IMG/VR virus record: IMGVR_UViG_3300048625_000523
Location: 1-56,098 of that record
Reading direction: 5' to 3' (one strand)
DNA: 56,098 nucleotides
DNA from: a virus
Taxonomy: Duplodnaviria; Caudoviricetes
Each line of letters opens with the position of its first letter. Position 1 is the first letter of the stretch. Positions 16,902-30,393 of the stretch are shown piece after piece. A program made the translations under genes and the position numbers. The notes under the pieces were generated by a model. That model did not search any database. It saw only the letters and a list, made by a program, of their open reading frames with translations, and had not been told where the DNA came from.

Positions 16902-17115
16902 CTCCTCGTGCTACGATGTTGGCGATCTCTGTGGTCATGAATCTCGCAACCTCTGACACAAGACTTTGAACCTCCGTTGCATCCACACGGGCCATGCTCT
17001 CTGCAGCCTTCATCGCCAACTGCACTGCAGCGCCGAACACCACAAATGCAGGAGCCCCTTCACAATTCTGTTCAAACTTCGACAACAACTCTGCGCCATC
17101 TTCGACAATGTTCAT
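16879..17115 (-). CDS. Hypothetical protein
   Basis: SD GGAGGAG before MNIVEDG. Confidence 0.55.
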   Translation of the reverse strand: MNIVEDGAELLSKFEQNCEGAPAFVVFGAAVQLAMKAAESMARVDATEVQSLVSEVARFMTTEIANIVARGGVENATH

Positions 17116-17417
17116 TTCACAGCTCCTCCGCAAGAATCACAAGGCACTTCTACAGTTTTAAACCCTCGCTTACGCGAGAGCTTCCCCAATCCGCCACACA
17201 CAACACACACACTCTTCCACAATCCGCTGTGTGCGTCGTACAACTTACGCGCTGTCGGATCTAGCAACACGGCGCAAATTTGATTCACTTCGACCATCCT
17301 CTGCGCATCCCCATGATCTCGGTCTGGGTGTAATTGTCCTGCCAACACTTTGCGCCGTTGGCGAATCTCTTCCGAAGAGGCTGTCTCAGCCACTCCGAGT
17401 CGTTCGTAGTAATTCAT
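17112..17417 (-). CDS. J-domain (DnaJ-like) protein with Zn-finger
   Basis: MNYYERLGV...LHPDR...VLLDP..RKLYD, plus CVVCGGLG and CDSCGG. Confidence 0.85.
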   Translation of the reverse strand: MNYYERLGVAETASSEEIRQRRKVLAGQLHPDRDHGDAQRMVEVNQICAVLLDPTARKLYDAHSGLWKSVCVVCGGLGKLSRKRGFKTVEVPCDSCGGAVK

Positions 17418-17572
17418 AGCTCGCTCGCAAGAACCAACACCCACAGAGGCCACAACAACACACTGCGGACACCACCCCACAAGCTGATTCGATCTTCGAA
17501 CATAGCAGCTGCGATAAACGTCACGCAACAACCAACGTAGATGTAAATGACACTCCAAACAGGCCAAGGCAT
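17414..17572 (-). CDS. Small membrane protein, 52 aa (not in the ORF track)
   Basis: MPWPVWSVIYIYVGCCVTFIAAAMFEDRISLWGGVRSVLLWPLWVLVLASEL. SD GAGGAG. ATGA overlap with the J-domain gene. Confidence 0.65.
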   Translation of the reverse strand: MPWPVWSVIYIYVGCCVTFIAAAMFEDRISLWGGVRSVLLWPLWVLVLASEL

Positions 17573-17602
17573 TTTCAACTCCTCGATTTCAGACGGTACT
17601 TT

Positions 17603-17631
17603 ATCTTACTCCAACTTTACTGATTTGGCAA
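17603..17631 (-). promoter_or_regulatory. Sigma70-like promoter
   Basis: TTGCCA-N17-TAAGAT. Confidence 0.7.
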
Positions 17632-19656
17632 CTACCATTTTGACTTTGACGCGAGCGGATGATGTTCGTCGTAGTGGTTGCACGCTTCCTTCCACGCAGC
17701 TGAGCCTCTCCAATATCCGTCATTGCGAATCGCATATACCATAATCATCGTACCATCCGCCGTGCGCAGTCGGTTCCCAGCACAAGGTGGGTTGAATCCT
17801 GCCCTCTTCAACTCGCGCGACATTGTATTGAGCGTGCAGCGCGAATTGCCCAACGGGTCGTACAGTGCCAACAATTCTTTGGGTGTGAACAGGTCTCCAG
17901 TCAGTCCAGCGCGGTGCAGCATGGAAGTGGTGTTGATGCGCAGTTCTTGCACCCATGCAGCGATATCACTCTTGTTCGCCGATTGCATGTGCATCTTGCT
18001 GATCGTCATTGGTGCGGGCTCCGTGGGGTCGAATTTGCTGGTGTCCACGGTCAGCAAGTGGTGCCACAAAGCGGATATAAATTCGTCATCATTTAGTGCT
18101 GCAACAGCTCGTTTGCGCAAAGACACAGACAACTTACCGCTCAAAACTTCGTGGATGAAGAACCTTCGGTCTTGGTCGTCCATTGTCAGTGCGTCAGGAT
18201 CGTTGGACGTGATGTAGTAGTTGATAGTGTCCAGTATGGAGTATGATGGTATGAACTTCGGATCTAGTCGTATGTACTTCTGCGTGACCATTGTCATCAA
18301 TCGCCTCATGAACCTGCGGTCTCCACGTGCTGTAATATCGTCAGCCAATGCAAACTGCTTGTTCTCAGCCCACTGGAACCGTCCATCGTCCAAGTCTTGA
18401 TCCTTCAGCTCTGTGCTGTTCTTGCCGTAAATCCGACACACCATACTTCCGATCAACGTCTTGCCTGTGCCGTGCTCCGGCCCCCACACCAACACAGCAG
18501 TGTTCAATTTGTATCCGGGGTTCTGCAGCGGATAGGCCAGCCATTGTTCGAACCAATTGCGCGATTCATCCTGCTTCAGGAACAAGTGGTCCAATAACTC
18601 GTGCCAAACTGAACAATCACCTTGTCTCGGTGCGTCTATACCCCACCCACTCCATGTATTGAGAAGCCCTTGTTGTGTGACCGTGGGTTCTCCAGGCGCG
18701 AAGGCCACGCCACGCACTTCACTGCGATGCTCCCACTTCAACCACTCCGTGGCTGCAGACTTCTTGGTCAGCGTTACTTCGCCACGCTTGTTCACAGTTT
18801 GTTCCCAGTGTGCAATGTTGGCAAAGGCGTGGTTTGTAAATGATTGTGGGGGCAGCTTTTGTTTCAGTTCATGATCCCACACGAATCCTGGGTCTCTGAC
18901 ATACACCACTCTTTGGTTGAGCGCATGCAGTGCTTGCGATGGGCTGAACTCGACAGCACCCAATAACACTGCATCCAATTCTTCCGCACCGTACAAGAGT
19001 ATGAAGTCGTCCAACCCAACCTTGCTGACTTCTTCATTTGCGGGCAACCGCGCCAACATTACTCGGGCTCCCAGCTCTAGCAGTCGTTTAGACAACACAC
19101 CTTCGGCCCGCACAATGTCGGGATTCGTGGCTGCGTCGGAGTCGAACACAATGTATACCATGCGTCCATCCCATGCAAATTGTTGCAAGGAAGGTAGCAC
19201 ATGCAACTCATTCTTTTTGGACATGAAACACCAAACCCCGCCCAATCCCAGCGTGGGGTACCCAAACTTGGTCGCGCAAGCAGCTTTCAACTCACCTTCA
19301 GTGATAATCAGTGGTACTGAAGGGTCTTGAGCGATGGCAACCCAATCAACGAATGGTGCAAAATACACTTCATTGATCGTGGCCGAAGGTTGTCCGTATC
19401 TCAGGGGCTTGGGTTGTGTGATTTTATCGAAACCTTTGCGGGTGTCTGCAAGGTACCGGTACCGATAGAACTTCGTGACTTTGCCATCCAGGGCGAAGTA
19501 TGGTATTTTGAAGCCTGCTGCGTATGCAGGCAATTTGAGAGACTTTTTGGCTTCAGCTTCTTGAAGCAGCTCCAGCTTGAGCAATTTTGCATCAGACAAA
19601 TCAAGCAGCGAACCACCCAGCTTATTCTCAAACAGCGTTTCTAAGGGTTCTGTCAT
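17632..19656 (-). CDS. Primase-helicase (Toprim/DUF3854-like plus SF3/D5-like helicase)
   Basis: IITEGELKA, VFDSD, KVGLDDF. LAYPLQNPG and Walker A GPEHGTGKT. Confidence 0.9.
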   Translation of the reverse strand: MTEPLETLFENKLGGSLLDLSDAKLLKLELLQEAEAKKSLKLPAYAAGFKIPYFALDGKVTKFYRYRYLADTRKGFDKITQPKPLRYGQPSATINEVYFAPFVDWVAIAQDPSVPLIITEGELKAACATKFGYPTLGLGGVWCFMSKKNELHVLPSLQQFAWDGRMVYIVFDSDAATNPDIVRAEGVLSKRLLELGARVMLARLPANEEVSKVGLDDFILLYGAEELDAVLLGAVEFSPSQALHALNQRVVYVRDPGFVWDHELKQKLPPQSFTNHAFANIAHWEQTVNKRGEVTLTKKSAATEWLKWEHRSEVRGVAFAPGEPTVTQQGLLNTWSGWGIDAPRQGDCSVWHELLDHLFLKQDESRNWFEQWLAYPLQNPGYKLNTAVLVWGPEHGTGKTLIGSMVCRIYGKNSTELKDQDLDDGRFQWAENKQFALADDITARGDRRFMRRLMTMVTQKYIRLDPKFIPSYSILDTINYYITSNDPDALTMDDQDRRFFIHEVLSGKLSVSLRKRAVAALNDDEFISALWHHLLTVDTSKFDPTEPAPMTISKMHMQSANKSDIAAWVQELRINTTSMLHRAGLTGDLFTPKELLALYDPLGNSRCTLNTMSRELKRAGFNPPCAGNRLRTADGTMIMVYAIRNDGYWRGSAAWKEACNHYDEHHPLASKSKW

Positions 19657-19689
19657 AATTCAACGTTGTGACGGAGTTGAAGACGAGGC

Positions 19690-19767
19690 GTCGCCTCGCG
19701 CTACATAGAGTGAGGAGGAGCTGAACCCGACTCACTCGCAGGCCGTCTCCTGGTAGCGCGAGGCGAC
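19690..19767 (-). ncRNA. Putative structured small RNA/leader (three-way junction)
   Basis: Perfect 15-bp outer stem (19690-19704/19753-19767), 7-bp stem (19708-14/19731-37) and 4-bp stem (19739-42/19749-52). Its 5' end coincides with the predicted start site of the adjacent promoter. Confidence 0.65.
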
Positions 19768-19772
19768 AATGT

Positions 19773-19801
19773 ATTGTGTCTCAGACACAAGTAAAAGGCA
19801 A
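19773..19801 (-). promoter_or_regulatory. Sigma70-like promoter for the ncRNA/primase
   Basis: TTGCCT-N17-CACAAT. Confidence 0.6.
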
Positions 19802-19803
19802 TC

Positions 19804-20265
19804 TCAAAACGCAACCCCCATGCGCAGCTGCGTTACACTCACAGTGCCGTTGCCAATGGCTGGAACCCACAACACATCCCAACGTCCTTTGCCAATTTGA
19901 CCACTCAGCACTGCACCACCAAGCATGTTGCAGGTCTTGAGTTGTGCGCACGTGTAGCCTGTAGCATATACACCCCACACCCCGGCTGAGAAGGTTCCAA
20001 GCTTCAGAGGCTTGTAAGCTCCGCCCATGTGCATGGAACCGCCTCCATAGCTGTTCGTGCCGAAGCCCACGTCGGTGGAAAGTGTTTCGTTGAAGTCGTG
20101 TTGCCAACTGATGCGGTGCGGCTGTTGCCACGGCTCACACTTCTTGGCGTACGAAGATTGACATTCGGAAGTGTGTTTTGTGTATGCGTCCAACATGATT
20201 CTATCTTCTGCAACACACACCCCACTGCTCAACAACATTGCAACACACAACCATCTTACTTGCAT
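19804..20265 (-). CDS. Secreted, probably outer-membrane beta-barrel protein (PagP-like)
   Basis: Signal peptide, alternating beta-strand pattern, YTKH and TNSYG motifs, terminal Phe. Confidence 0.55.
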   Translation of the reverse strand: MQVRWLCVAMLLSSGVCVAEDRIMLDAYTKHTSECQSSYAKKCEPWQQPHRISWQHDFNETLSTDVGFGTNSYGGGSMHMGGAYKPLKLGTFSAGVWGVYATGYTCAQLKTCNMLGGAVLSGQIGKGRWDVLWVPAIGNGTVSVTQLRMGVAF

Positions 20266-20311
20266 TTTAGTTCTCCTGAAATAGACAGTTCGTGGGTACT
20301 GTCTCAACCCA

Positions 20312-20512
20312 TTATGTTCGCTCTTCGAACATCTCTTGCGCTGCTTCGATTGTGTACAGATCGTCGTTCGGCACAATGAGCAGTCTGCATCCGTCAAGCG
20401 TCACACGCCAACAATCTGTGCGCCCATCGCTTGTTTGAATGTACACTTCAGTGTTGGGTTGTGTGTTGTGCTTCAGCAATTCCGCGATGAGTTCTTTGAT
20501 TTGCATTGCCAA
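20312..20512 (-). CDS. Hypothetical protein
   Basis: Small early ORF in the co-oriented block. Confidence 0.5.
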   Translation of the reverse strand: MAMQIKELIAELLKHNTQPNTEVYIQTSDGRTDCWRVTLDGCRLLIVPNDDLYTIEAAQEMFEERT

Positions 20513-20517
20513 TCCTT

Positions 20518-20739
20518 TTAAAGTGTGCTCAACCTGCTGATAGCTGCATCCAACAACATCCCAGCTGTTTGTGTTCTGCTGGCTACTGCTGATCCGCCAA
20601 GTCTGTACCGACCGCCAGACAATTCTTCTACCACTGTGAAGGCAATTGTCTCTCCTGCTTCACACCGTTGCAACAACTCCTTGGCGCATTCTACAGCCTT
20701 GAAGTCTGGGGTTGTTTGCAGCTCAACAATATTGCTCAT
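20518..20739 (-). CDS. Hypothetical protein
   Basis: Small early ORF with ATGA overlap. Confidence 0.6.
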   Translation of the reverse strand: MSNIVELQTTPDFKAVECAKELLQRCEAGETIAFTVVEELSGGRYRLGGSAVASRTQTAGMLLDAAISRLSTL

Positions 20740-21027
20740 TTTGGCATCCTGTGTGCGTATGCTTCAAAGTACCGGTCGTATGCTTCTTTTGCAGAACGGC
20801 CAGTTGTCTCGGCGTATACATAGTTGCGCACAAAGAAGCTGTCTGCCAACACAAAACCGTGACACACCCAACCGCCAAGTCTGTCCAAACATAGATGGGG
20901 TTTCTTGCTGCTCAACCTATTTCTGGCAATCATTGTTGTCCTCCGTTGTTGTCTACACCTTGTATCTAGATATGTGCTTTGGGTGTCAGCCCTTCGGTCG
21001 GCTGTCGCTGATCTCAAACGTCAGAAC

Positions 21028-21261
21028 TCATTTTCTACCATTCAGCCACTGTTTAGCCTTTGCAAGCCGCGAGTTCATTGCTTCGCTTTTGTATGGGCCT
21101 GAAGTGTGCTTAATGCTGTTTTGCAAATCAATAGTCGATGCATGCCCAAGTGGTACACCTAGTAGTCCAAAGCCTAAGCACGAATTTGATATGTTTTGCT
21201 GCTGCGCGTTGTATCGGGCGCGGGCTGCATCGCTCATTGAAAAGTATTCGTATTGGTCCAT
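21028..21261 (-). CDS. Hypothetical protein (degenerate cassette)
   Basis: SD AGGAG. Flanked by decayed attC halves. Confidence 0.5.
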   Translation of the reverse strand: MDQYEYFSMSDAARARYNAQQQNISNSCLGFGLLGVPLGHASTIDLQNSIKHTSGPYKSEAMNSRLAKAKQWLNGRK

Positions 21262-21279
21262 TTCTAACTCCTATGTGCG

Positions 21280-21337
21280 TTCTAGCTCTTCAATCCATGG
21301 GACTCGCTACAAGCCGCCGGGTATTTCTGCGTTATCC
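21280..21337 (+). repeat. Degenerate attC-like site
   Basis: TTCTAGC TCTTC AATCCATG...GACTCGCTAC...TTCTGC GTTATCC. Confidence 0.5.
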
Positions 21338-21613
21338 GACACGGCCTTCTAGCATTCTGATCGTGTCATCCCACCGAATAGCACTACGGTCATTCCACTT
21401 TTTCAACTTCGACAAAATCAACTCATCACGCCCTTTATATCGGTTTGCAATTGCGACAGTCAGAGCCACCTCCATGTCCGCAGCGCGCTCCATTACATCG
21501 ATCCGAGACGCCTCTATGCCTCGCGCTACGTGGTCGCTGACATAGGCCGATACCTCTGGGTTTTCTTTTACGTAGTCTTGCACATAGTTCAAAAATGCGA
21601 TGTGGTCTTTCAT
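21332..21613 (-). CDS. Hypothetical cassette protein
   Basis: Single ORF between attC sites, stop codon inside the core site. Confidence 0.65.
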   Translation of the reverse strand: MKDHIAFLNYVQDYVKENPEVSAYVSDHVARGIEASRIDVMERAADMEVALTVAIANRYKGRDELILSKLKKWNDRSAIRWDDTIRMLEGRVG

Positions 21614-21633
21614 GGCTTGCCCTTTCTTAGAAA

Positions 21634-21721
21634 GCCTAACACGCCAGCCAAGCTGGCTCCGGCAAGCTGCGCTTGTGATGCCCTCGTTTCACTCGGCTGC
21701 CTCTTACCTCAAACGTTCGGC
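21634..21721 (+). repeat. attC-like site (88 bp)
   Basis: GCCTAAC...CTTACC TCAAAC GTTCGGC. Confidence 0.75.
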
Positions 21722-21722
21722 G

Positions 21723-22106
21723 TCATGGGCGGCTATCCGCGCCGCACCTGGGGCAGCAGCCAGACCACATCTGCGCTTCGCTCATAAACACCTTGCAGCT
21801 TTCGCACCGGTATTGCTCGCGCTTCGGCTTCGGCTTTGGCTCGGGCGTCAGCACAATACCGGTTCCGGCCAGCGCCTCTTCGCGCTTGATGTACTGCATA
21901 TCAACAGCCGGGCGCGTCTTGGCGTCGATGTAATCCTTGGGCCACGGAATGTCCGTCTCGCGCATTTCGTGTTGGGCAACTGCTTCGTCTTTGGTGTAAG
22001 CGTGAGCCTTACTTAAATCAGTCGTGTAACCTTTGCCGTCCTTGGCCCACCAAAGCACATCGTTCCCGACATAGCCACGGCTGTCTTGCAGATAAAATAG
22101 TTGCAT
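21723..22106 (-). CDS. Phage hypothetical protein with C-terminal Zn ribbon (cassette)
   Basis: MQLFYLQDSRGYVGND..WW...GYTTDL. CESC/CPRC. SD AAGGA. Confidence 0.7.
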   Translation of the reverse strand: MQLFYLQDSRGYVGNDVLWWAKDGKGYTTDLSKAHAYTKDEAVAQHEMRETDIPWPKDYIDAKTRPAVDMQYIKREEALAGTGIVLTPEPKPKPKREQYRCESCKVFMSEAQMWSGCCPRCGADSRP

Positions 22107-22127
22107 GTTTAGTCCTTTTAAGATGAC

Positions 22128-22190
22128 GCCGAACACTACATTCGAGGGGATTCGCTGCAAGCTGCGCTTTCCGCTCTCCCCTCACTTACT
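22128..22190 (+). repeat. attC-like site with the right core site lost
   Basis: GCCGAAC ACTAC ATTCGAGG...CCCCTCA. Near-duplicate of 23357-23427. Confidence 0.6.
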
Positions 22191-22372
22191 TCAGCCAGTA
22201 TGCACGCTGTTGCGAGTTTCGCAATCAAGCTATTGTGTGCGGCATGCCACCCTGCCCACGCATCTTGTACCGATGGCAAAACATAATCCCCCGCCTCGTT
22301 TCGGCGTTTTGTGTGCTGATTGTTTCCGAGATGTTCGAGTTCAAACGCCTTACGAATTTTGTTTTCATTCAT
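22136..22372 (-). CDS. Hypothetical cassette protein
   Basis: SD AAGGAG. Contains Y....VQDAWAGW.A. Reads through the damaged attC. Confidence 0.6.
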   Translation of the reverse strand: MNENKIRKAFELEHLGNNQHTKRRNEAGDYVLPSVQDAWAGWHAAHNSLIAKLATACILAEVSEGRAESAACSESPRM

Positions 22373-22393
22373 TTAATTCTCCTTGTTTAGCCA

Positions 22394-22454
22394 GCCTAAC
22401 TAATCGCTTGAGCGCGACTCCGCTTCGCTACGCGCCTCATCTCAAACGTTCGGC
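22394..22454 (+). repeat. attC-like site (61 bp, classic 59-base-element size)
   Basis: GCCTAAC TAATC GCTTGAGC ...CCGCTTCGCTACGCG CCTCATC TCAAAC GTTCGGC. Confidence 0.85.
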
Positions 22455-22690
22455 GTCAAAATCGCTTCAGCCAATTGCATGCCTTCTGCAACAGCCTCAT
22501 CCCGCATCACTCTGGCGGCGAGCCGGTCAATTCCCAGCACCTTGGCAAATTGCCCCTCGCTTAGATTTCCCGTCTCCCATGCCAGCAGCAATTGCGCGTT
22601 CTCCAGTTCTGTCTTCAGGCTGCATGCCGTGCCTCTGTGTTTGGCTTGGTAGAGCCTGTAGCGTCGTTGCTTTAGTTGATCCATGTTCAT
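22442..22690 (-). CDS. Small HTH protein (UPF0175-like), cassette
   Basis: WETGNLSEGQFAKVLGIDR. Ends TPNV* inside attC. Confidence 0.55.
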   Translation of the reverse strand: MNMDQLKQRRYRLYQAKHRGTACSLKTELENAQLLLAWETGNLSEGQFAKVLGIDRLAARVMRDEAVAEGMQLAEAILTPNV

Positions 22691-22704
22691 CACCTTTCTG
22701 TGAC

Positions 22705-22788
22705 GCCGAACAATTCCGTCGAGCGGACGGTTGCAAGCTGGGTTTCTTAACGTGGTCAGTCCGCGCCTGCTCACGTCAAACGTTAGGC
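22705..22788 (+). repeat. attC-like site (84 bp)
   Basis: GCCGAAC AATTC CGTCGAGC...GCTCACG TCAAAC GTTAGGC. Confidence 0.85.
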
Positions 22789-22967
22789 GTCGAGTTTGCC
22801 CGCACTTTCTTTGCTGCGTCCTTGAGCAAAGTTGTTGCAAAACTGTCCAGCAAGTATTCGCAAGATTGGTTCGTTTTCCACAGGGCGATATTCTGTTCTG
22901 CGGCTTCTACCAACTGCATCGCAGTTGAGTTTTCAATGCTTTCTTCCGGCAAACAAAACAAGCCCAT
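22776..22967 (-). CDS. Hypothetical cassette protein
   Basis: SD GGAG. Ends TPNV* inside attC. Confidence 0.55.
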   Translation of the reverse strand: MGLFCLPEESIENSTAMQLVEAAEQNIALWKTNQSCEYLLDSFATTLLKDAAKKVRANSTPNV

Positions 22968-22987
22968 AGTTATCTCCGTTATCGCCT

Positions 22988-23070
22988 GCCTAACCACTCC
23001 GCCGAGCAGACGGGTTGAAGCTAGGCCGTTTAATTAGTCTTGTCCGCCGCTGCTCACGTCAGCGTTATGC
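22988..23070 (+). repeat. attC-like site (83 bp)
   Basis: GCCTAAC CACTC CGCCGAGC...GCTCACG TCAGC GTTATGC. Confidence 0.8.
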
Positions 23071-23337
23071 ATCACGATCATCAAGCGCCAAAGCTGCGTC
23101 AATCGCACTCAGCGCGCCTTCATCGTAGGTGCGGCACACAATCGCGGCCCGCGCCTCTTTCAGAGCTGACAAAAGTTGCTCGCACTTCCCTGTGCCTGTT
23201 TCGTGGTCGGCTTCAAGTTCAAGCGTTTTCACTCTCAAGCGTTCAATTTCCTTCGCCGCAGCCAGATATAGCGACGTGTTTTCATAAAGGTGATTTCTCT
23301 CTGCCACATCGCGCAGATGTTCGACTACATCGTACAT
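23065..23337 (-). CDS. Hypothetical cassette protein
   Basis: SD GGGAG. Contains AAKEIERLR and LLSALKEA. Stop codon in the attC core. Confidence 0.65.
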   Translation of the reverse strand: MYDVVEHLRDVAERNHLYENTSLYLAAAKEIERLRVKTLELEADHETGTGKCEQLLSALKEARAAIVCRTYDEGALSAIDAALALDDRDA

Positions 23338-23356
23338 TTCAGTCTCCCTAAGTGAC

Positions 23357-23427
23357 CCCTAACACTACATTCGAGAGGGATTCGCTCAAGCTACGCTTTT
23401 CGCTACCCCTCAATTACGACGTCAACC
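23357..23427 (+). repeat. attC-like site with mutated right core (GTC)
   Basis: CCCTAAC ACTAC ATTCGAGA...CCTCAAT TACGAC GTCAACC. Confidence 0.65.
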
Positions 23428-23562
23428 AACACGAACATGCCGGCAGCCCGCGATATCGCAATCGCGACAAACGATCACAGCTCCGCTGTCCGGGCTTCTG
23501 ACTTTGCACTATAACTCCGCACAGCAAGTCCAGTTGCTGTTGTTTTGTCGGGTACATGAGGC

Positions 23563-23856
23563 TTACAGCATTTCGTCCAAACGCGCACGGTCTGCCTTGG
23601 ACAACTTCTTTTCTTTAGTTGCAAGATGCTGGCCCACGTACCGTTCCCCTCCCTTGATAAGCAAAGCTGTTTCATCCGGGGAAAGAAAGGTAATAACGTC
23701 GGGGTTACGTCTCAATGTGTCATGAATAAGCCCCATAATGTTCTTATATGCAGGCACGTCAGAGGCCAAGGCTGTTTCTAATTCTGCAAAATGCATCTGC
23801 AAACGGGTTGCATCTTCGGCTGAAAGCGTCGCTTCCGGTATGTCCAACATTGGCAT
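23563..23856 (-). CDS. Hypothetical protein with its own promoter
   Basis: SD AGGAG. Upstream TTGCCA-N17-CAAACT at 23872-23900. Confidence 0.65.
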   Translation of the reverse strand: MPMLDIPEATLSAEDATRLQMHFAELETALASDVPAYKNIMGLIHDTLRRNPDVITFLSPDETALLIKGGERYVGQHLATKEKKLSKADRARLDEML

Positions 23857-23912
23857 ATAAGGTGTTCTCCTAGTTTGTTAAAACTTAAGTAGTTTGGCAA
23901 GTACCCCTGCTA

Positions 23913-24104
23913 TCATTTAATCCTCCGCATGATGTTACGTTTAACCCACGGCTCCGGGCGTGTAGCCAGCTTCTTTGCTGCATCATCCTTGGCCTTGGCC
24001 TGTTCATTTGCCACAGCCGCGAGCATAAACACAGCCAAAGATGCAGCGAAAAAGTATCCAAATATCTTAGCCACAGTTAGATACCTCCAAGATGGATAAA
24101 CCAA
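23913..24104 (-). CDS. Small membrane protein
   Basis: One hydrophobic helix followed by a basic tail. Confidence 0.45.
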   Translation of the reverse strand: MVYPSWRYLTVAKIFGYFFAASLAVFMLAAVANEQAKAKDDAAKKLATRPEPWVKRNIMRRIK

Positions 24105-24111
24105 TACGGCC

Positions 24112-24462
24112 TCATTTTGAGGCCGACTTCACGTTAGGGGTCAGCGGCTCCATCGTGTAGTTGCCACGCCAAGCCATATCGCTCGGCCAGTGCGAACCGT
24201 CCTCACAATCGCAGTCCTGATCTAGTGGTGCGCTGTCGGGGCGCATGTCCTTGTCAATGCACTGCGCAGAGTGCGTGACAACGCCGCAGCAAACCTGCTC
24301 AACTTCCTCGCTCCAGCCTTCATCAAGGTATCCGGCGATGGCGTCCTCTGCTGCTGCATCGCGGTCTTCTTCTGTGCGGAAAAACATCACCCCTTCCCAC
24401 TCAGGATCGAACAACCAAAACGGGTATTCGCTGTGCGGGTGCATCTTGTAATCTTTTGCCAT
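24112..24462 (-). CDS. Acidic phage hypothetical protein (cassette)
   Basis: DEGWSEEVEQVCCGVVTH. Ends TPNVKSASK across an orphan core site GTTAGGG (24133-24139). Confidence 0.7.
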   Translation of the reverse strand: MAKDYKMHPHSEYPFWLFDPEWEGVMFFRTEEDRDAAAEDAIAGYLDEGWSEEVEQVCCGVVTHSAQCIDKDMRPDSAPLDQDCDCEDGSHWPSDMAWRGNYTMEPLTPNVKSASK

Positions 24463-24485
24463 GCTTAAACCTTTCTGGGTCGAAC

Positions 24486-24563
24486 CGCTAACAAATCAAT
24501 CAACCACGCTCCACTTCGTTCCGCTGGACTCGCTACGCTCGCCGGTTATCTCAAACGTTAGCG
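24486..24563 (+). repeat. attC-like site (78 bp)
   Basis: CGCTAAC AAATC AATCAACC...GGTTATC TCAAAC GTTAGCG. L'' carries the extra base expected of attC. Confidence 0.9.
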
Positions 24564-24570
24564 CCCATGT

Positions 24571-24804
24571 TCAAAGTGCATCTAGCGCCGCTTGTATTGC
24601 AATTCGTTCCGCTGGTATGTCTGCCACCAGCATCCATGAGCTTTCACCCTGCTCCCAATGTGTGCTGCTACATTCCACATAGGCCCGCTCTTTGGGATCA
24701 ATATAAAAACACACAGCATCTTCGTTCCCAAGAACCATATGCCCTTCCGTGCATGAAAGCTGCACAGAACCTTGCCGCAACACTGTTAGTCGAGTGTCTT
24801 TCAT
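24571..24804 (-). CDS. Hypothetical protein
   Basis: SD GAGG, co-oriented with neighbours. Confidence 0.55.
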   Translation of the reverse strand: MKDTRLTVLRQGSVQLSCTEGHMVLGNEDAVCFYIDPKERAYVECSSTHWEQGESSWMLVADIPAERIAIQAALDAL

Positions 24805-25000
24805 TTCTTCCTCCCCTCAACCCCAAAACACCCTGTTTCCTACCAATGCACCCATCAAGATTGCATCCGCTCCAACAGCCACAGCCGCACGTCGCAAGGT
24901 GCCAGGCTCACCACTTCATAGCAAATGCCGTACAGGCTCCGGAACTCCGGTCGCAACACCTCTTGCAACCTCTGCCTCACACTCTTCAAGTGCCCGCGAT

Positions 25001-25294
25001 TCATTTCTGCACCTCGCGAACCTTCAACCTGCGCTTCTGCGTCTCCGGAGCCCGCTCAGCCACAATGCGCACCCGTGTGTCAAGCAACGGCGTGGCGAGC
25101 CAGTACAAAACTCCACCCTGCTCACTCGACTCTACTGCGTGGTACTGGTGCAGCACATGCAACGCTCTGCTTACGTCTGCACGCTCTAGTCCCACAGCCT
25201 CAGCAACCTTACGCGCCGTGGCGAAGTCATCCAACTGTTCAAGGTACTCCATGCACATTGAAGTGTGTGTCGGCTGTTTCAATATCCGTGGCAT
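25001..25294 (-). CDS. Winged-HTH protein
   Basis: TARKVAEAVGLERADVSRALHVL...V....G.LYW. Confidence 0.65.
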   Translation of the reverse strand: MPRILKQPTHTSMCMEYLEQLDDFATARKVAEAVGLERADVSRALHVLHQYHAVESSEQGGVLYWLATPLLDTRVRIVAERAPETQKRRLKVREVQK

Positions 25295-25295
25295 A

Positions 25296-25568
25296 TCAAA
25301 CTCCGTAGTATTCAATCTCACGCAGCGCTGCGTTGTACGCAGCCTGCCACCAGTACTGCGCCACTGCAGCTCGCTCTGTGCTCGTGAGCGCATCGTAGTA
25401 CTTGTCCGCACCCAGAGCTTCTTCAATCCTGTGGGGCCGCCACGGGAAGTACTGCGACGTTGCACACCCCACTTCCGCGTCTGCTCGCTTCTCCGCCTCC
25501 GCGTGGAAGGTCTCCGCCTCTTCGCAAGCCCTGTGGTGCGCGTTCTCTGCCCGTTCCAGGAAGTCCAT
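25296..25568 (-). CDS. Hypothetical protein
   Basis: Start MDFLERA abuts the upstream stop codon. Confidence 0.55.
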   Translation of the reverse strand: MDFLERAENAHHRACEEAETFHAEAEKRADAEVGCATSQYFPWRPHRIEEALGADKYYDALTSTERAAVAQYWWQAAYNAALREIEYYGV

Positions 25569-25921
25569 CACACACCCCCTTTCCGCGCCGCAGCAATCCG
25601 CTGCTCTAGGCTCTTCAACTCCTCCTCGAAGGTGTGGTCGATGCACTGTTCGTCCAACTCATTCACAGCCCGAAACGCCACATCCACCGCTGCATCCGCA
25701 ATCTGCTGCAGCTCCTCAGCAACCCCTCTTGCAGCAGCAATGCGCACTTCTAACTCCGGGGGCAGCCCTACTTGCCTGCTGCGCTCAGCGTCGCGGTACG
25801 CAAGGGCTTCCGCCTTCGTAAAAAACACGCGTGCATCCGTGGAAAACTCACTGCGGTACGGCAGGTGTGTCTCAATGTAGCCGTCAGCCGACGACACATA
25901 GATAGTGCGATATTCAACCAT
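25568..25921 (-). CDS. Hypothetical early protein
   Basis: Strong SD GAGGAG. First gene after the promoter at 25968-25996. Confidence 0.65.
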   Translation of the reverse strand: MVEYRTIYVSSADGYIETHLPYRSEFSTDARVFFTKAEALAYRDAERSRQVGLPPELEVRIAAARGVAEELQQIADAAVDVAFRAVNELDEQCIDHTFEEELKSLEQRIAAARKGGV

Positions 25922-25967
25922 TTCTCAGCTCCTCATTTTGCGAGGCCTCGACGGAGACCTCAGTAAC

Positions 25968-25996
25968 AGTCTATGCCTCAATTCCGCGCTGGGCAA
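25968..25996 (-). promoter_or_regulatory. Sigma70-like promoter
   Basis: TTGCCC-N17-TAGACT. Confidence 0.7.
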
Positions 25997-26027
25997 GCTC
26001 TTTTACAAGCCCGCCCAGCCGTTTATT

Positions 26028-27017
26028 TCACGCAGAGAGGGCCAACTGCACGGCAGCCGCTTTGCGCCCAGCTCCAGCCCCGTACCATGCTTGGTACAAG
26101 CTGTGATCCACCGTCTTGCGCGTCCTGGCGGCAGCCAAGTCATAATCAACAGTCTCCGTCACGGCGTTCAACCACCCCCAAGCCGTGCCTGCCACTCCGG
26201 CGAGCTCCGCGCCTTTGCCCGCGCCGTCGAAGAGTGTGAGGATCTTCGTGTAAGCGGGGGACGCCTCAACCTTCCGAGCTGCGTCGGTTCCACGGCCTGC
26301 ACCGGGGGCGAGCAGTTGCAGCGTCATGTCGGCAGCTGCGAGGTCGGAAACACGCTTCTTTGCAAGGTCGCGAGCTGTGGAGATGAACTCTTTGAAGTTC
26401 CCTCGAGCCACACCCAGGGAGTCCTTCACTGCTGCCGGGTTGAACGTGGAGCGGTGCCCAATCTTCACGCCTTGCAGCTGTCCAGGTTGCATCGCCATCG
26501 ACAACGTATTGTTGCACACTACACGCACCGTCGTGAAGCGTGCATCCGTGGCGGTGGATCCGTCTGCACTGGTAGAAAGCAACAAGTACCCACCCACCAC
26601 ATCTTTGGGGGAGATAATTTTGGCCGACTCATTGATGCGAGCCAAAGCCCAGAACCGCTTGCCCTGGAACAACGTGCCTGCGGTCTCGAGTGTGAAGCCA
26701 TTATCCACCACAAGGTCGCTGAAGAACTCCAGCACCTCGGCAGGTTGCACCACTTTATACATGTCGGACACAATGCCCAATCCCTCTCCGGTGTCGGAGC
26801 GGTGCAGCACGCGCTGATTGTCGAAGGTGCGCAGGCCTTCGGGGGTGCTGTATGCCACAGCGGAAGATTGGATGCTCCAATCGAACCGTGCGGCTTGGAT
26901 CCAGGTGGGGATGTCAGCACCTTCGGGCAATTGTTGGCCCAATTGGTGCCACGGTGTGGTTCCTACGTAAGCCATTTCAGCCTTGTTGTCTGCGCGGATG
27001 GTAAGTTCGTGTGCCAT
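26028..27017 (-). CDS. DUF932 family phage/plasmid protein
   Basis: MAHEL...MAYVG.TPWHQLG, YKVVQP, ETAGTL..GKRFWALA, TVRVVCNNTL, GTAWG.LNAVTE. Confidence 0.9.
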   Translation of the reverse strand: MAHELTIRADNKAEMAYVGTTPWHQLGQQLPEGADIPTWIQAARFDWSIQSSAVAYSTPEGLRTFDNQRVLHRSDTGEGLGIVSDMYKVVQPAEVLEFFSDLVVDNGFTLETAGTLFQGKRFWALARINESAKIISPKDVVGGYLLLSTSADGSTATDARFTTVRVVCNNTLSMAMQPGQLQGVKIGHRSTFNPAAVKDSLGVARGNFKEFISTARDLAKKRVSDLAAADMTLQLLAPGAGRGTDAARKVEASPAYTKILTLFDGAGKGAELAGVAGTAWGWLNAVTETVDYDLAAARTRKTVDHSLYQAWYGAGAGRKAAAVQLALSA

Positions 27018-27060
27018 GGTTCTCAGCTCCTCTGTTTGTACTACGATTGACGGAGATATC

Positions 27061-27090
27061 AGTATGGACTCAAGTTACTGACTTGGGCAA
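27061..27090 (-). promoter_or_regulatory. Leftward early promoter
   Basis: TTGCCC-N18-CATACT. Confidence 0.6.
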
Positions 27091-27904
27091 AGTATTTTGA
27101 GAATATTTGTACGCTTGCCAGGCAGCCTTGAGATTCTCTAGACAAATAGATCTTTTGACGTTCAAAGTGGTTGCGCATCTCAGGGTCTCGGGGGCTGCGG
27201 ATGGGGTGTGGACATATCTGGGGTGGTATAAAAAGCAAGGCAAGCTTGAAAACACGGGAAAACCCTGATGAAAGTGGTGATATCCGTTTGGAATTAGAGT
27301 TTGGGGGTGAAAGTCAGTAAATCGACACGTTTTTAGCTGTTTTTATCAGTAAAACGCATGACGACAAAATAGACAAATAAGTTGGCGAAAACCTGCAATA
27401 TCCGAAACGCATACAAGGTTCGAAGACAATTTATTTGTCTGTCAAAACAAGGTAGAATGAATATCTGCGCGGGTTTGCGGCTGGTTCGCGGTTAGTTCTA
27501 CCGAGGTTGCAAAAGGCGAACTAGCGGAGACGCTGTGGAGGCGCGGGTTGCTACGGTTTTTTAGATTAAAAAAAGCTTGGTTCGTCTTTTTTACGTCCAT
27601 TACTATATATATATATTACTATACTCTTACTGATATCTCTCTTCTCCTTCCTCTCTAATAATAAAAGAAAAAGAAGAACCACTACTTTTCTCTCTCCTCT
27701 CAGCCCCGAGACCCGCGATCCTACACGCTTTGCGACTGTTCTTCTTCTGCGCCCATTGGACGACGTCATTTACCCTCCAATCGCCCGCAGACCCTGGGTA
27801 CTCCGGTGTCTGCGATAGTTCGCCTTTCTTAAAAAAGACGAACTGCATCTAACTTATGCGAACGGCATATGCTTACGGGATATTGCGGATTCTCAACAAA
27901 TTTA

Positions 27905-27933
27905 TTGCCCAAGTCAGTAAGTTGAGCCAGAGT
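27905..27933 (+). promoter_or_regulatory. Rightward promoter, an inverted copy of the leftward one
   Basis: TTGCCC-N17-CAGAGT. 21/22 identical to the reverse complement of 27069-27090. Confidence 0.55.
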
Positions 27934-27984
27934 TCGTCTTACCGACTTGCCGGATCGCAAGAACTTTCCAAATTGGAGAACACC

Positions 27985-28218
27985 ATGGCCTACACCACAA
28001 TCCGTACCCAAGTTCTGAAGCCTGCGAATGTCGAAGCTGCGAAGCGTGGCTTCCTGAAGACGTTGTGCGACTACGTTGCCAAGAATGGCGACGTACCGAC
28101 ATCGAAGCTGGTGAAGCGATTTGCAGGCAAGACCGACGGCAGCAAGGTTGTTTCGACTGAGCGTGTCGTGCGGTATGCGTACTACGCAGTTCAGCATGGC
28201 TTGCTGACTGCGCACTGA
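27985..28218 (+). CDS. Small basic putative DNA-binding protein
   Basis: SD GGAG. Has its own promoter and terminator. Resembles the C-terminus of 8643-9299. Confidence 0.7.
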   Translation: MAYTTIRTQVLKPANVEAAKRGFLKTLCDYVAKNGDVPTSKLVKRFAGKTDGSKVVSTERVVRYAYYAVQHGLLTAH

Positions 28219-28321: not shown

Positions 28322-28735
28322 ATGGCCTCCACACGCGCATCCAAACCGGCTCAACGCCTGACACCACTGGCGAGCACAGGCACGTTCATCACCGAACAAG
28401 GTGTGATCGTCGATGCTCGGGGTGTCGGCATCTCATTTCAACAGTTGCAATCGCAAGACGATACGTACTTTGCCGAAGTGCTGGGTAAGTCGGTCGAGAC
28501 ACCCGCTGAGCTGCTGAAAGCCGTGGCCCTGGACCCTCGGCAACCGTTGGCGCGAAGATTGGCGTGTGCCAAGGACGCCGCGCCGTACTTCGACAAGAAG
28601 ACGCCAGTGATGATCGAAACGCCTGCTGAAGACCCGACGAAACTTATGGACTTGTCGAAGCTGACGGACAAAGAGCTGGGGCAATTCCTGGTGCTTGCTG
28701 AGAAACTAGGGCTTTCACCTACGGAGAAGGGTTGA
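28322..28735 (+). CDS. terS: Terminase small subunit (putative)
   Basis: Directly upstream of terL. Contains RLACAKDAAPYF and DLSKLTDKEL. Confidence 0.65.
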   Translation: MASTRASKPAQRLTPLASTGTFITEQGVIVDARGVGISFQQLQSQDDTYFAEVLGKSVETPAELLKAVALDPRQPLARRLACAKDAAPYFDKKTPVMIETPAEDPTKLMDLSKLTDKELGQFLVLAEKLGLSPTEKG

Positions 28736-30393
28736 TGCGTACAGCCCGCGAGAAGCCCTCCAAGACCGTCGAAGCCCCCTCCCCCTCAGGAACCGTTGAA
28801 AAATCGCCTCTACGGGCTGAGAAGGGCCTTGCAACGGGGGTTCTGAGCCTCTCGCCTTCCGTTATCCGCGCAGCCCAGCGTGAAAAGCGTCGCCGCGACG
28901 CAGCCAAGGATCTGCGCTCCTTCACCCGAGCGTCGTGGCCCACCATCGAACCTGGGTGTCAGTTCGTGTCGGGGTGGCACTTGGACGCAATCTCAGAGCA
29001 CTTGGAAGCTGTGTTGAATCGGCAAATACGATTCTTGGTCATCAACATGCCGCCACGCCACATGAAGTCGATCAGCGCAGCAGTGCTGCTGACACCCTAC
29101 GCGTGGATTCGCAATCCGTCGCACCAATTCCTGTACTCGTCATACGCAAAAGACCTCGCAGTCCGCGACAGCGTCAAGTCGCGCAGGCTGATCCAATCGC
29201 CGTGGTTCCAAGAGCTGTGGGGCGACGTGTTCCAACTGGCGGGAGACCAGAATGCCAAGACCCGCTTCGAGAACACACACAATGGGCACAGGCTCTGTTG
29301 CTCCACGGGCTCAGCCACTACGGGCGAAGGTGGCGACACGTTGGTGATGGACGACCCCCACAACGCGATGGAAGCACAGAGTGACGTCATGCGCAAGAGC
29401 GACCTGGAATGGTATGACCAAGGATTCAGCACTCGACACAACAACCCCAAGACCGGAGCCACGGTGTGCGTGATGCAGAGGCTCCACGAGAACGACATGA
29501 CCGGACACTTGTTGGAGATGGGTGGGTGGGAGCACCTGTGCTTGCCTGCCGAGTACGACGGACGGCGCATCGTGACCAGTATAGGATGGGTGGATCCACG
29601 TAAAGAACAGGGTGAGTTGCTGTGGCCCGAGCGGTTCGACACGAAGGAGCTGGCACGGCTGAAGAAGCCTCTTGGGGACTACGGTGTCGCAGGGCAATTG
29701 CAGCAGCGACCCGATCCGGCCACGGGTGGCATCATCAACGCAGCGAAGATTCGCTTGTGGCCTGCGAAGTCTCCGTTGCCCGACTTCAGCGCCGTCATAC
29801 AGAGCTACGACACAGCGTTGGATGAGAACGAAATGAACGACTACACAGCGTGCGTCGTGCTTGGGTTGTTCGAACATAAAGGGCGCATTCGTGTGATGCT
29901 TGTGGATGCGTGGCACGAGCGGCTGGGGTACGACAAGCTGCGCCCCCGAGTCAAAAAGGACATAGAGGACAACGCATACGGAGAAGAGGAGATGGCCAAG
30001 CGTGCGGACTACGCACTCATCGAGCGCAAGGGCTCAGGCATCAGCCTCATCCAAGACCTCGCAGGCCGTGCGCGCAACCGCATTCGAGGCTATAATCCAG
30101 GCAGCTTGGACAAAGTAGCTCGTGCCCGCTTGGTGGCCCCACTCATTGACGACGAATTGGTGTTTGTGTGTGAGAGCACCAAGAACCCAGGACAATGGGC
30201 AAACTGGGCTGCGTGGCTGCACAAAGAGTTGCGGCAATTCCCAGTGGGTGAACATGACGACGGAGTAGATGCATTGGTGCAAGGTCTGCGGCACTTGCAT
30301 GTTGAAGGATTCATCACTATCTCCGACGACATTGAAGAGCCTGACGAGTTCGCAGAGGAGCGAGCCCCGAGGGTCAATCCGTACGCAGCATAA
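28732..30393 (+). CDS. terL: Terminase large subunit
   Basis: INMPPRHMKS, TGEGGD.LVMDDPH, MQRLHEND, QSYDTA, FPVGEHDDGVDA. Confidence 0.95.
   Translation: MMRTAREKPSKTVEAPSPSGTVEKSPLRAEKGLATGVLSLSPSVIRAAQREKRRRDAAKDLRSFTRASWPTIEPGCQFVSGWHLDAISEHLEAVLNRQIRFLVINMPPRHMKSISAAVLLTPYAWIRNPSHQFLYSSYAKDLAVRDSVKSRRLIQSPWFQELWGDVFQLAGDQNAKTRFENTHNGHRLCCSTGSATTGEGGDTLVMDDPHNAMEAQSDVMRKSDLEWYDQGFSTRHNNPKTGATVCVMQRLHENDMTGHLLEMGGWEHLCLPAEYDGRRIVTSIGWVDPRKEQGELLWPERFDTKELARLKKPLGDYGVAGQLQQRPDPATGGIINAAKIRLWPAKSPLPDFSAVIQSYDTALDENEMNDYTACVVLGLFEHKGRIRVMLVDAWHERLGYDKLRPRVKKDIEDNAYGEEEMAKRADYALIERKGSGISLIQDLAGRARNRIRGYNPGSLDKVARARLVAPLIDDELVFVCESTKNPGQWANWAAWLHKELRQFPVGEHDDGVDALVQGLRHLHVEGFITISDDIEEPDEFAEERAPRVNPYAA

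Follow-up and report, generated by a model that had tools for sequence, protein, structure and literature searches.

A probable cluster of inverted, Burkholderiales-type attC cassettes, partly eroded, in the genome of a freshwater phage

A 56-kb phage sequence (56,098 nt; referred to below as the window, meaning the whole stretch analysed) carries a series of integron-type attC sites separated by small genes which all lie antisense to the attC top strand. We interpret this region as a partly eroded CALIN (a cluster of attC sites lacking an integrase) of inverted cassettes with attC sites of Burkholderiales type, located in the accessory region of the phage, which would have entered by way of a host IntI and subsequently decayed; we assign this reading a probability of about 0.8. 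Integrons are regarded as bacterial gene-capture devices, and a CALIN is a set of two or more neighbouring attC sites that face the same way, with no integron integrase nearby. CALINs were reportedly defined, and surveyed in bacterial replicons, by Cury and colleagues in 2016 with IntegronFinder.

The unit of the array would be an inverted cassette composed of a small phage-type gene opposite to the attC top strand, with its attC site located 5′ of the gene. Such units may have been brought in and reordered through attC x attC recombination, with a host-encoded IntI acting in trans during infection. Several sites would later have decayed; in the five survivors the R and L boxes and the bulged base persist, and the central stems are weak.

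Genome context

The record is a phage genome from freshwater with a completeness of 94% (CheckV). Its genes include those for thymidylate synthase, helicase, DNA polymerase, primase, large terminase, a lytic tail protein, an exonuclease and a DNA-binding protein. Across the whole record there were no matches to IntI (TIGR02249) or to tyrosine recombinases (PF00589), in agreement with the original prediction, made from sequence alone, that the window contains no tyrosine recombinase. The array occupies the variable early/accessory region of a phage with its own replication genes. Its GC content equals that of the remaining genome, window-wide, and so bears no mark of recent arrival; in a distant relative the array is missing altogether. 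The cumulative GC skew turns at about 26–28 kb, the point at which gene strands diverge, which is compatible with outward replication but is no proof of it.

Identification and layout of the attC sites

The motif TCAAACGTTMGSCGYC, with up to two mismatches, has five matches in the window, four of them on the + strand within 21.7–24.6 kb, against an expectation of 0.12; none of 100 shuffles reached five. We built a covariance model, R1, from an alignment (A1) of 30 bacterial attC sites from integrase-bearing Burkholderiales genomes and ran it over the whole window on both strands with filters off. Its consensus fold consists of R″/R′ and L″/L′ with a bulge, with compensatory changes in six pairs. 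R1 is a proxy, distinct from the attC model of IntegronFinder. Five sites were significant, all on the + strand, with 61 to 28 bits and E from 9e-15 to 1e-5; these E-values are rough. A 16-mer from the window had served to gather the training sites; S4 and S7 do not carry it. At the same five places the minus strand scored 13.1 bits at best. Rfam, which may hold no attC family, gave no match in the window. The sites and remnants are as follows.

20982..21029, +, weak remnant (orphan core near 21020) of the 3′ end of an attC; R1 9.2 bits, E 1.9; direct-repeat families D1/D7, 69–77%
21280..21337, +, possible heavily decayed attC; 23-nt direct-repeat likeness to S2d/S7 (family D5) only
21634..21721 (R1 21631–21724), +, attC S1; 30.4 bits, E 2.6e-6; L boxes poorly paired
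22125..22196, +, decayed attC S2d; 12.2 bits, E 0.29; R′ end missing; overlap with the 3′ end of g7
22394..22454 (R1 22391–22457), +, attC S2; 46.2 bits, E 1.1e-10
22705..22788 (R1 22702–22791), +, attC S3, the best site; 61.0 bits, E 9e-15
22988..23070 (R1 22985–23073), +, attC S4; 28.3 bits, E 1e-5
23357..23427 (R1 23362–23422), +, decayed attC S5d; 16.0 bits, E 0.024; R′ end lost
24133..24142, +, orphan R′ box; complementary at 10/10 positions to the left box of S5d at 23354–23363
24486..24563 (R1 24483–24566), +, attC S7; 31.3 bits, E 1.5e-6

The original prediction had named five intact sites and proposed a covariance model as a check. R1 recovered all five on the + strand at 28–61 bits, down to E 9e-15, with match coordinates equal to the predicted ones plus 3-nt model flanks. 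The damaged sites fared unevenly: those at 23362–23422 and 22125–22196 were matched weakly (16.0 and 12.2 bits), whereas 21280–21337 had no match at E≤10. At least three sites (three to five) are damaged. A terminator-like hairpin on the minus strand (24107–24125) adjoins the orphan R′ box.

In the R1 alignments the sites include a 7-nt R″, 5 nt, an L″ with one bulged base, a loop, L′, a spacer of 6 nt (5 nt in one site) and R′, which is the layout that had been described, with + as the top strand. The five sites carry xxxxAAC...GTTxxxx boxes whose 7-nt R″/R′ pairing has 0–1 mismatch, and R1 places the spacers and the bulged base on the R″/L″ arm in all of them. This bulged base is the canonical strand-selection feature of attC. 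L″ and L′ pair cleanly in S3 and with 1–2 mismatches in S2, S4 and S7; in S1 they pair poorly. That + is the attC top strand follows from the R1 scores, far higher on + than on −, from the direction of the Piscinibacter array described below (contig L163) and from the strand of bacterial ORFs on the model.

The five significant sites span 2.9 kb and, with the decayed sites, the array extends over 3.6 kb. Five sites on one strand and the lack of an integrase in 56 kb identify it as a CALIN. In these features it agrees with the CALINs defined for IntegronFinder; those were surveyed in bacterial replicons, and this one is in a phage.

Genes of the array and their orientation

Every gene in and next to the array is on the minus strand.

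21028..21261, −, g4, 77-aa ORF with SD motif; no Pfam or PHROG match
21332..21613, −, g5, 93-aa ORF with SD motif; phrog_26335, E 8.6e-4
21723..22106, −, g6, 127-aa zinc-ribbon protein; phrog_2457, E 3.5e-25
22136..22372, −, g7, 78-aa ORF with SD motif; phrog_343, E 1.4e-5
22442..22684, −, g8, 80-aa ORF; final codons and stop within the S2 spacer and R′ box
22776..22967, −, g9, 63-aa ORF
23065..23337, −, g10, 90-aa ORF
23563..23856, −, g11, 97-aa ORF
23913..24074, −, g12, 53-aa ORF, GTG start; hydrophobic stretch judged by eye
24112..24462, −, g13, 116-aa acidic protein; phrog_35663, E 8.7e-6
24571..24804, −, g14, 77-aa ORF; precedes the array in the order of transcription

An SD-supported ORF antisense to the attC top strand is present in all six inter-site intervals, as had been predicted, and the PHROG matches of g6, g7 and g13 lie on this minus strand. 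The array genes share their strand with the neighbouring phage genes. Their supposed co-orientation with early promoters found no support: a scan of the minus strand between 19.5 and 28.8 kb gave no sigma-70-like site. The product of g6 falls in an Atlas cluster annotated as 'putative zinc ribbon protein' (score 0.98), and the gene has 74% nucleotide identity over 259 nt with Burkholderia phages. A homolog of g13 (39% over 59 aa) occurs in an attC-flanked cassette of another viral contig, L034. Three ORFs enter the spacer and R′ box: g8 and g9 terminate in TPNV-stop and g13 has TPNV near its end. The bacterial arrays fetched contained no homologs of g1–g16.

Related arrays in bacteria and in other viral contigs

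The attC sites of the window are of the family found in the chromosomal integrons of Burkholderiales and allied betaproteobacteria. The bacterial arrays compared were from Piscinibacter, Aquabacterium, Rhizobacter, Rubrivivax and others, and three of the five genomes holding arrays of this family encode an IntI above the TIGR02249 cut-off (446–457 bits). On the Piscinibacter contig L163 the order is intI, a divergent cassette ORF and attC, with attC pointing away from intI. Bacterial cassette ORFs lie on the R1 top strand in 88 of the 99 intervals scored and on the opposite strand in 11. S2d and S5d, which have lost the end bearing the 16-mer used for the training set, are identical to a 72-nt Rhizobacter attC site at 54 of 75 and 54 of 76 aligned nucleotides respectively. 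Over 36 nt the 3′ half of S7 has 92% identity with an attC site of the viral contig L005. Many of the arrays fetched sit at contig ends.

A further signature of cassettes is complementarity between the R″ of an attC and the TTRRRY found at the 5′ end of its own cassette, within the R′ of the preceding site. Among 127 pairs of adjacent bacterial sites, the R″ of the second site is better matched by the R′ of the first than by its own R′ in 99, with 6 in the reverse sense and 22 ties. In the window, S1 R′ and S2d R″ are complementary at 10/10 positions, as are S2 R′ and S3 R″, the own pair of S3 having one mismatch; S3 to S4 is a tie (3 vs 3 mismatches), S4 to S5d has 3 mismatches, and from S6o to S7 the own 7-nt core is better paired than the cross pair (two vs three). 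The window shares with the sedentary chromosomal integrons of Burkholderiales the order of elements within a site (R″, spacer, L″ pattern, spacer, R′) and, in two pairs of adjacent sites, the 10-nt complementarity. Of three other properties of those arrays, intI (in 3/5 genomes) and co-oriented genes are absent from the window, and its hairpins appear less well paired.

Inversion recurs in other IMG/VR viral contigs with the same attC family: of their 72 inter-site intervals, 59 have a longest ORF that is antisense, whereas in bacteria this holds for 11 of the 99 scored. The comparison suggests a systematic inversion of the phage-borne cassettes of this family with respect to those of bacteria. 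Five of the ten longest antisense ORFs in these viral contigs match PHROG families, including PAPS reductase, queuine tRNA-ribosyltransferase and a Lar-like restriction-alleviation protein, and none of the ten longest sense ORFs does. Cassettes of L034 have a GC content of 0.49–0.50 against 0.28–0.36 in the flanks, and L012 and L017 have one gene and its attC in common; cassettes in these three viral contigs look as if they moved recently.

Present activity of the array

Bottom-strand folds of the window sites (z −0.4 to −1.5) are no better than those of shuffles, whereas 30 bacterial sites have a median z of −3.9 (range −10.2 to −0.7), only the three weakest of them folding as poorly. The dG of the window sites is −0.11 to −0.18 kcal/mol per nt, and they lie in the weak tail of the bacterial range. 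The weak central stems of the five remaining sites imply that present activity is probably low. Contigs of four runs from three studies contained no joints, indels or cassette polymorphism, although rare variants drop out of contigs. Together with the decayed sites, these observations make present host-IntI activity plausible at most.

The original prediction had gone further, with the phage borrowing a host IntI to acquire, excise and shuffle genes. In its strongest form this reading makes the array fully functional today, and cassettes would be gained, lost and reordered fairly often in each infection of an intI-positive host. Its integron-type attC sites, its real integrase-less phage and its antisense genes stand; current shuffling is disfavoured by the weak folds, the three to five decayed sites, the absence of structural variants in those contigs, the lack of the array in a distant relative and a GC content identical to that of the genome. 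We consider a fully functional array unlikely, while recognising that the boxes, spacers and bulged base are intact in five sites, that two adjacent-site pairs are perfectly complementary over 10 nt, that IntI1 recombined five of six phage attC sites in the published assays cited below, and that L034 (GC contrast) and L012/L017 (common gene and attC) suggest recent moves.

Erosion might also have left relics with another role, either portable homology at gene boundaries, used by general or phage-encoded recombination, or RNA hairpins in early transcripts, and no present role for IntI. The sites do lie exactly at gene boundaries, g8, g9 and g13 run into the R′ box and spacer, genes for an exonuclease and a DNA-binding protein are present in the phage, and weak DNA hairpins would fit relaxed selection for IntI recognition. 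However, neither RNA nor DNA folds of the sites exceed shuffles, a scan found no terminator-like sites coinciding with attC sites, and homology alone needs neither a bulged base nor fixed spacer lengths. We therefore hold this explanation to be improbable, more so than a functional array.

Two further explanations, which question the attC identity of the sites or the integrity of the sequence, can be given very little weight. Phages commonly have quasi-palindromic intergenic repeats, and the window has no Rfam match, but convergence on an attC-like form is highly improbable given E-values down to 9e-15 with a model made from bacterial sites only, the approximately 72% identity of S2d and S5d to a bacterial attC over the full length of the latter, loop included, and the presence of the same attC family next to intI. 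Least probable is an assembly chimera joining a bacterial integron fragment to a phage contig, since, although attC repeats break or mis-join metagenome assemblies and many of the arrays fetched lie at contig ends, positions 17000–26035 are spanned at even depth by one contig (17,023 nt) of run X1, a second study's run provides pieces at ≥99% identity for the flanks and array edges (20624–21161, 24585–24799), GC is uniform, and the genes are phage-type, co-oriented with the flanks and, unlike those of bacterial arrays, antisense to attC.

Relation to known systems and possible significance

Chromosomal integrons include inverted cassettes, for example toxin-antitoxin cassettes with their own promoters, in which, as in the window, the gene is opposite to the attC top strand in an otherwise normal cassette. 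In bacteria these are a scattered minority, whereas in the window every cassette is inverted, and, unlike the bacterial ones, window cassettes carry early-type phage ORFs read through from outside.

CALINs in phages, including virulent ones, have been described by Qi, Rajabal, Ghaly, Tetu and Gillings (2023, Front Microbiol; PMC9892861). The portions of that paper considered here report 17 CALINs among 10,705 phage genomes and recombination by IntI1 of five of six phage attC sites tested, and propose that a host integrase is used in trans. These CALINs, like the window, are integrase-less clusters recognisable by attC models; the one for which those portions give counts has 3 attC sites and 4 ORFs, against five significant and at least three decayed sites here. 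The window attC sites, of Burkholderiales chromosomal type, are also unlike those described there, and its genes are all antisense, while the best examples in that paper are termed 'typical' of bacterial arrays. A term search of its text gave no mention of antisense genes, and its supplementary tables may bear on orientation. The statement that integron elements are rarely reported in phages is right as to rarity, but the kind was already published with IntI1 assays (PMC9892861). Phage CALINs themselves being known, the novelty appears to lie in the size of the array and in the recurrence of the inverted orientation in viral contigs.

More tentatively, and with doubts outweighing our confidence, phages of freshwater and soil betaproteobacteria may hold a cassette pool of their own, inverted and moved by host IntI, in which inversion is selected through strand placement. 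Cargo would consist of early, DNA-modification and anti-restriction genes, and with attC 5′ of the gene the recombinogenic bottom strand would be the sense strand. With genes running in the direction of transcription and replication, inversion would assign the attC bottom strand to both the non-template strand and the lagging-strand template, where it would fold most easily. The recurrent inversion in viral contigs, the PHROG matches among their antisense ORFs and the turn in GC skew are in keeping with this reading. This proposed placement is opposite to that in sedentary chromosomal integrons, whose attC bottom strand lies on the leading-strand template according to the part of PMC8946536 considered here.

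Phage attC clusters have so far been rare, small finds, and the window contains a long array in an accessory early region. If the inversion survives proper gene calling and IntegronFinder, it would define a distinct, phage-adapted cassette pool. Such a pool would offer a direct route by which unrelated phages sharing intI-positive hosts could exchange counter-defence and DNA-modification genes, and a natural test of the rule by which the strand placement of attC determines how fast it recombines. The attC type also provides a clue to the host of this uncultured phage, pointing to betaproteobacteria, mostly Burkholderiales.

Phage genome and array context

The record is linear (56,098 bases; CheckV completeness 94%). 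Its PHROG matches identify it as a genuine phage:

3827-4900, minus strand, thymidylate synthase
9347-10870, minus strand, helicase
11051-11767, minus strand, exonuclease
11769-13667, minus strand, DNA polymerase
17632-19656, minus strand, primase
28732-30393, plus strand, large terminase
30942-33689, plus strand, lytic tail or transglycosylase protein

Between about 2 and 27 kb the long ORFs lie on the minus strand, and further on they lie on the plus strand; the cumulative GC skew changes direction at 26-28 kb. Profile searches of the window revealed neither an integron integrase (TIGR02249) nor any tyrosine recombinase (PF00589), the latter already noted as missing from inspection of the sequence alone.

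The window sequence is present in four metagenome runs (freshwater or freshwater sediment) from three studies. When Logan contigs were placed on 17000-28000, a single contig of 17,023 nt was found to cover 17000-26035, which counts against a chimera. No joints or indels relative to 17000-28000 occur in the contigs of the four runs, two of which (X3 and X4) leave parts of the array uncovered, and there is thus no sign of cassette turnover in these contigs. The X4 contig ends at 21671/21725 and 22806 stem from short contigs of other organisms. A short X4 contig, from another freshwater study, shares with the window just the 3′ half of one site (S1; 21671-21725), between two unrelated flanks; this attC subtype therefore exists in another genetic context.

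A bacterial attC reference and the sites of the window

A 16-mer motif (up to 2 mismatches) has five matches in the window where 0.12 are expected, and four of the five lie on the plus strand within 21.7-24.6 kb; the repeats are not due to chance. An exact scan of bacterial genomes with the 16-mer matched at least 120 contigs. By our own arithmetic about 555 chance matches are expected in 596 Gb, and lone matches therefore carry no meaning. Among the matches listed, many Burkholderiales contigs contain several same-strand copies at cassette spacing, and multi-copy contigs include Piscinibacter, Aquabacterium, Rhizobacter, Rubrivivax and Polaromonas together with Nitrosomonas and Methylotenera. 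We extracted 144 candidate box-to-box stretches (47-139 nt), including a few nested alternatives or chance pairings. In the convincing candidates R″ is followed by 5 nt, an L″ that carries an additional base, a well-paired stem, L′, 6 nt and R′. IntI scored above the curated cut-off in three of five array-holding genomes (446-457 bits), and one Piscinibacter contig carries intI (plus), a divergent cassette ORF (minus) and then an attC (minus), which is the canonical integron layout.

Thirty short bacterial sites were aligned for a covariance model, and RNAalifold recovered from this alignment the R and L helices with the bulge, including six compensatory pairs. A near-identical 72-nt attC occurs in seven of the contigs collected (L044, L056, L057, L079, L097, L133 and L150), labelled Rhizobacter, Polaromonas, Burkholderiaceae, Burkholderiales and an "Acidobacteriaceae" MAG; either these bacteria draw on a widely shared pool of cassettes or the bins are contaminated.

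Run over the whole window with filters off, the model matched five sites, all on the plus strand, with 61.0, 46.2, 31.3, 30.4 and 28.3 bits (E-values 9e-15 to 1e-5; best minus-strand score at these places 13.1 bits). They are exactly the five sites called intact in the original prediction (S1, S2, S3, S4 and S7, starting at 21634, 22394, 22705, 22988 and 24486). Since two of the five lack the 16-mer with which the training set was collected, the result is not circular. The sites described as damaged behaved as such: 23362-23422 (S5d) scored 16.0 bits, 22125-22196 (S2d) 12.2 bits and 20982-21029 a marginal 9.2 bits, while 21280-21337 gave no model match. S2d and S5d each lack the R′ end, now lost, and agree with the 72-nt Rhizobacter attC, across the loop as well, at 54 of 75-76 aligned nt. 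A further match at 49903-49970 (minus; 16.3 bits, E 0.021) lies within a 504-aa plus-strand ORF, has no GTT core and is probably due to chance. Rfam at gathering thresholds gave 0 matches in the window, a result informative only if Rfam includes an attC family.

Folding, proposed at the outset as a check, proved less favourable. Whole-site DNA folds of both strands were not significant against dinucleotide shuffles, and the sites therefore cannot be validated on folding energy alone. For the bottom strand, the 30 bacterial sites have a median z of -3.9 (-10.2 to -0.7) against -0.4 to -1.5 for the window sites, which keep the R and L boxes, the spacers and the bulge and have weak central stems.

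Cassette signature between adjacent sites

In integron arrays the TTRRRY within each R′ is part of the cassette that follows and hence pairs with the R″ of that cassette. Scored on 10-nt boxes, this rule is obeyed in 99 of 127 adjacent pairs of the bacterial arrays, with 6 reversed and 22 ties. Two window junctions, S1 to S2d and S2 to S3, are perfect (10/10; 12/12 for S1 to S2d), and the own-site pair of S3 carries one mismatch. The remaining junctions tie or fail for adjacent-box complementarity. This pattern fits gene-plus-attC units once moved by site-specific recombination which have drifted since.

The left box of S5d (23354-23363) is a perfect 10-nt complement of an orphan R′ box (24133-24142) some 770 nt to the right. 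The stretch between them contains two array ORFs (g11 and g12) as well as a terminator-like hairpin (24107-24125, minus), and the arrangement suggests an insertion into, or a rearrangement inside, one former attC.

Array genes are antisense to the attC sites

The attC adjoining intI in Piscinibacter is directed away from intI, cassette ORFs of the bacterial arrays begin 10-50 nt past R′ on the top strand of the model, and across the bacterial loci 88 intervals have their longest ORF co-oriented with attC against 11 with the opposite orientation (our own sum, over intervals in which the lengths differed by at least 15%). From these three tests, the top strand of the model is the true attC top strand.

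Eleven small ORFs, all on the minus strand and each with an SD motif, occupy the window intervals, and in every one of the six inter-site intervals the SD-supported ORFs run antisense to attC. The sole family matches in the array are minus-strand PHROGs: phrog_2457 for g6 (3.5e-25), phrog_343 for g7 and phrog_35663 for g13. Pfam returned nothing above threshold for ten cassette ORFs, and the ESM Atlas matches of g13 and g6 were limited to "zinc ribbon" and to viral or bacterial clusters without a name. Three plus-strand ORFs, 22105-23037 (310 aa), 24567-25880 (437 aa) and 20525-21352 (275 aa), cross several attC sites and minus-strand genes and were rejected as antisense shadows. Taken together, the SD-supported ORFs, the minus-strand PHROGs and the nature of the plus-strand ORFs uphold the antisense arrangement that had been proposed.

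The C-termini of g8 and g9 read TPNV-stop, encoded by the R′ box and the TCAAAC spacer, both of the neighbouring site (22442-22459 and 22776-22793); g13 has the same TPNV close to its end (24127-24141). Both g8 and g9 have their final codons and stop slightly outside the cassette they belong to, within the conserved end of the site that follows, so that a relocated cassette would still meet a stop codon.

Relatives and gene homologs

A primase scan of viral contigs revealed no close relative, and a TerL scan gave a single locus at 35% identity. The nearest relatives found are three metagenome loci with 44-48% primase identity, too distant for a test of breakpoints at G/TT; none of their attC matches is better than E 0.19, and the window ORFs g1-g16 have no homolog there. 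The longest of them (L172; primase 48%) shares the primase and some downstream genes with the window phage, and carries other small co-oriented ORFs and no attC upstream of the primase (1-6290); the upstream regions of the relatives in general hold different small ORFs. The position upstream of the primase is thereby marked as accessory and hypervariable within this group of phages, and the array, in view of the relatives' upstream regions, as an acquired feature of that region rather than a lineage trait.

In a tblastn comparison of the window ORFs with all fetched loci, about 120 bacterial ones among them, the only match was that of g13 to the phage contig L034, and blastn of 20000-25500 yielded only a 36-nt attC match to L005. 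The search for these ORFs in bacterial integron arrays, suggested with the original prediction, thus found no window gene in the approximately 120 bacterial loci. In INPHARED phages the 72-nt attC has no match at E≤1, and a g6 homolog in Burkholderia phages is the only match to the 6-kb region.

Possible origin and the inverted orientation

The window therefore contains a partially decayed attC array, in a phage with no integrase and with genes antisense to the sites. The original observation is confirmed and its interpretation partly supported: attC membership, phage context, missing integrase and antisense genes stand, while for the shuffling by a host integrase we only infer that host IntI may have mediated entry and past shuffling of the units.

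The reason for the gene inversion is speculative. According to a review (PMC8946536), a bottom strand on the lagging-strand template favours attC folding and recombination, and chromosomal integrons hold theirs on the leading-strand template. The attC bottom strand in the window is the sense strand of the array genes and, judging by GC skew, these genes run with replication; the bottom strand would consequently fall on the lagging-strand template, a possible explanation of the inversion that can be tested.

attC arrays in other viral contigs

Phage CALINs (attC clusters without integrase) and a host integrase acting in trans are both already published: Qi et al. (2023; PMC9892861) report 3 integrons, one In0 and 17 CALINs in 10,705 phage genomes, and IntI1 recombination for five of six attC sites from virulent phages. 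We found no mention of antisense genes in that article, supplements aside, and our literature search found no paper on phage attC orientation or on IntegronFinder applied to IMG/VR. The main worth of the present data is the apparently recurrent inverted orientation.

Run on 41 viral contigs holding the 16-mer, the model gave 101 matches in 25 of them (100 distinct sites, one being scored on both strands); 14 contigs have at least three sites and the largest array has 17. IntI was above the cut-off in none of five array-bearing viral records (CheckV 50-88%), and one array-bearing record includes a TerL homolog. In 12 contigs, 52 of 63 viral-array intervals have a longest ORF that runs antisense to attC, as do 7 of 9 further intervals from the remaining contigs that have at least two sites. 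Five of the ten longest antisense ORFs have PHROG matches, namely PAPS reductase (7.6e-41), phrog_12600 (9.4e-63), queuine tRNA-ribosyltransferase (1.5e-49), phrog_924 and a Lar-like restriction-alleviation protein, against 0 of the ten longest sense ORFs. An SD-based heuristic gave 62/63 and 12/12 antisense in viral arrays and was noisy for the bacterial ones (60 vs 43 and 14 vs 7). It was for this reason dropped as sole discriminator of orientation, and the contrast between viral and bacterial arrays rests mainly on ORF length and family matches.

Cassette-level mobility among phages can be seen at three places. L017 and L012 have in common a gene together with its attC (68% amino-acid identity) between unrelated flanks, and L018 and L025 share another cassette gene. 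The third is an island at 6200-7010 of the AT-rich contig L034 (GC 0.49-0.50 vs 0.28-0.36 in the flanks) with two model-supported attC sites and one recognized by eye, the g13 homolog lying antisense between two of them; the R″ of its second site pairs with the R′ of the first and not with its own. L034 has a further 10/10 box pair between adjacent sites near 6221 and 6445.

Near-identical 60-aa ORFs at 3500-3682 and 9267-9449 of L025, within and beside its 17-site array, suggest a cassette duplication. L005 carries two opposite arrays, 217-1197 (plus) and 8639-12929 (minus). In one of them 8 of 9 intervals have a longest ORF that is antisense to attC; the two intervals of the other are divided 1:1, and there SD motifs are confined to the antisense ORFs.
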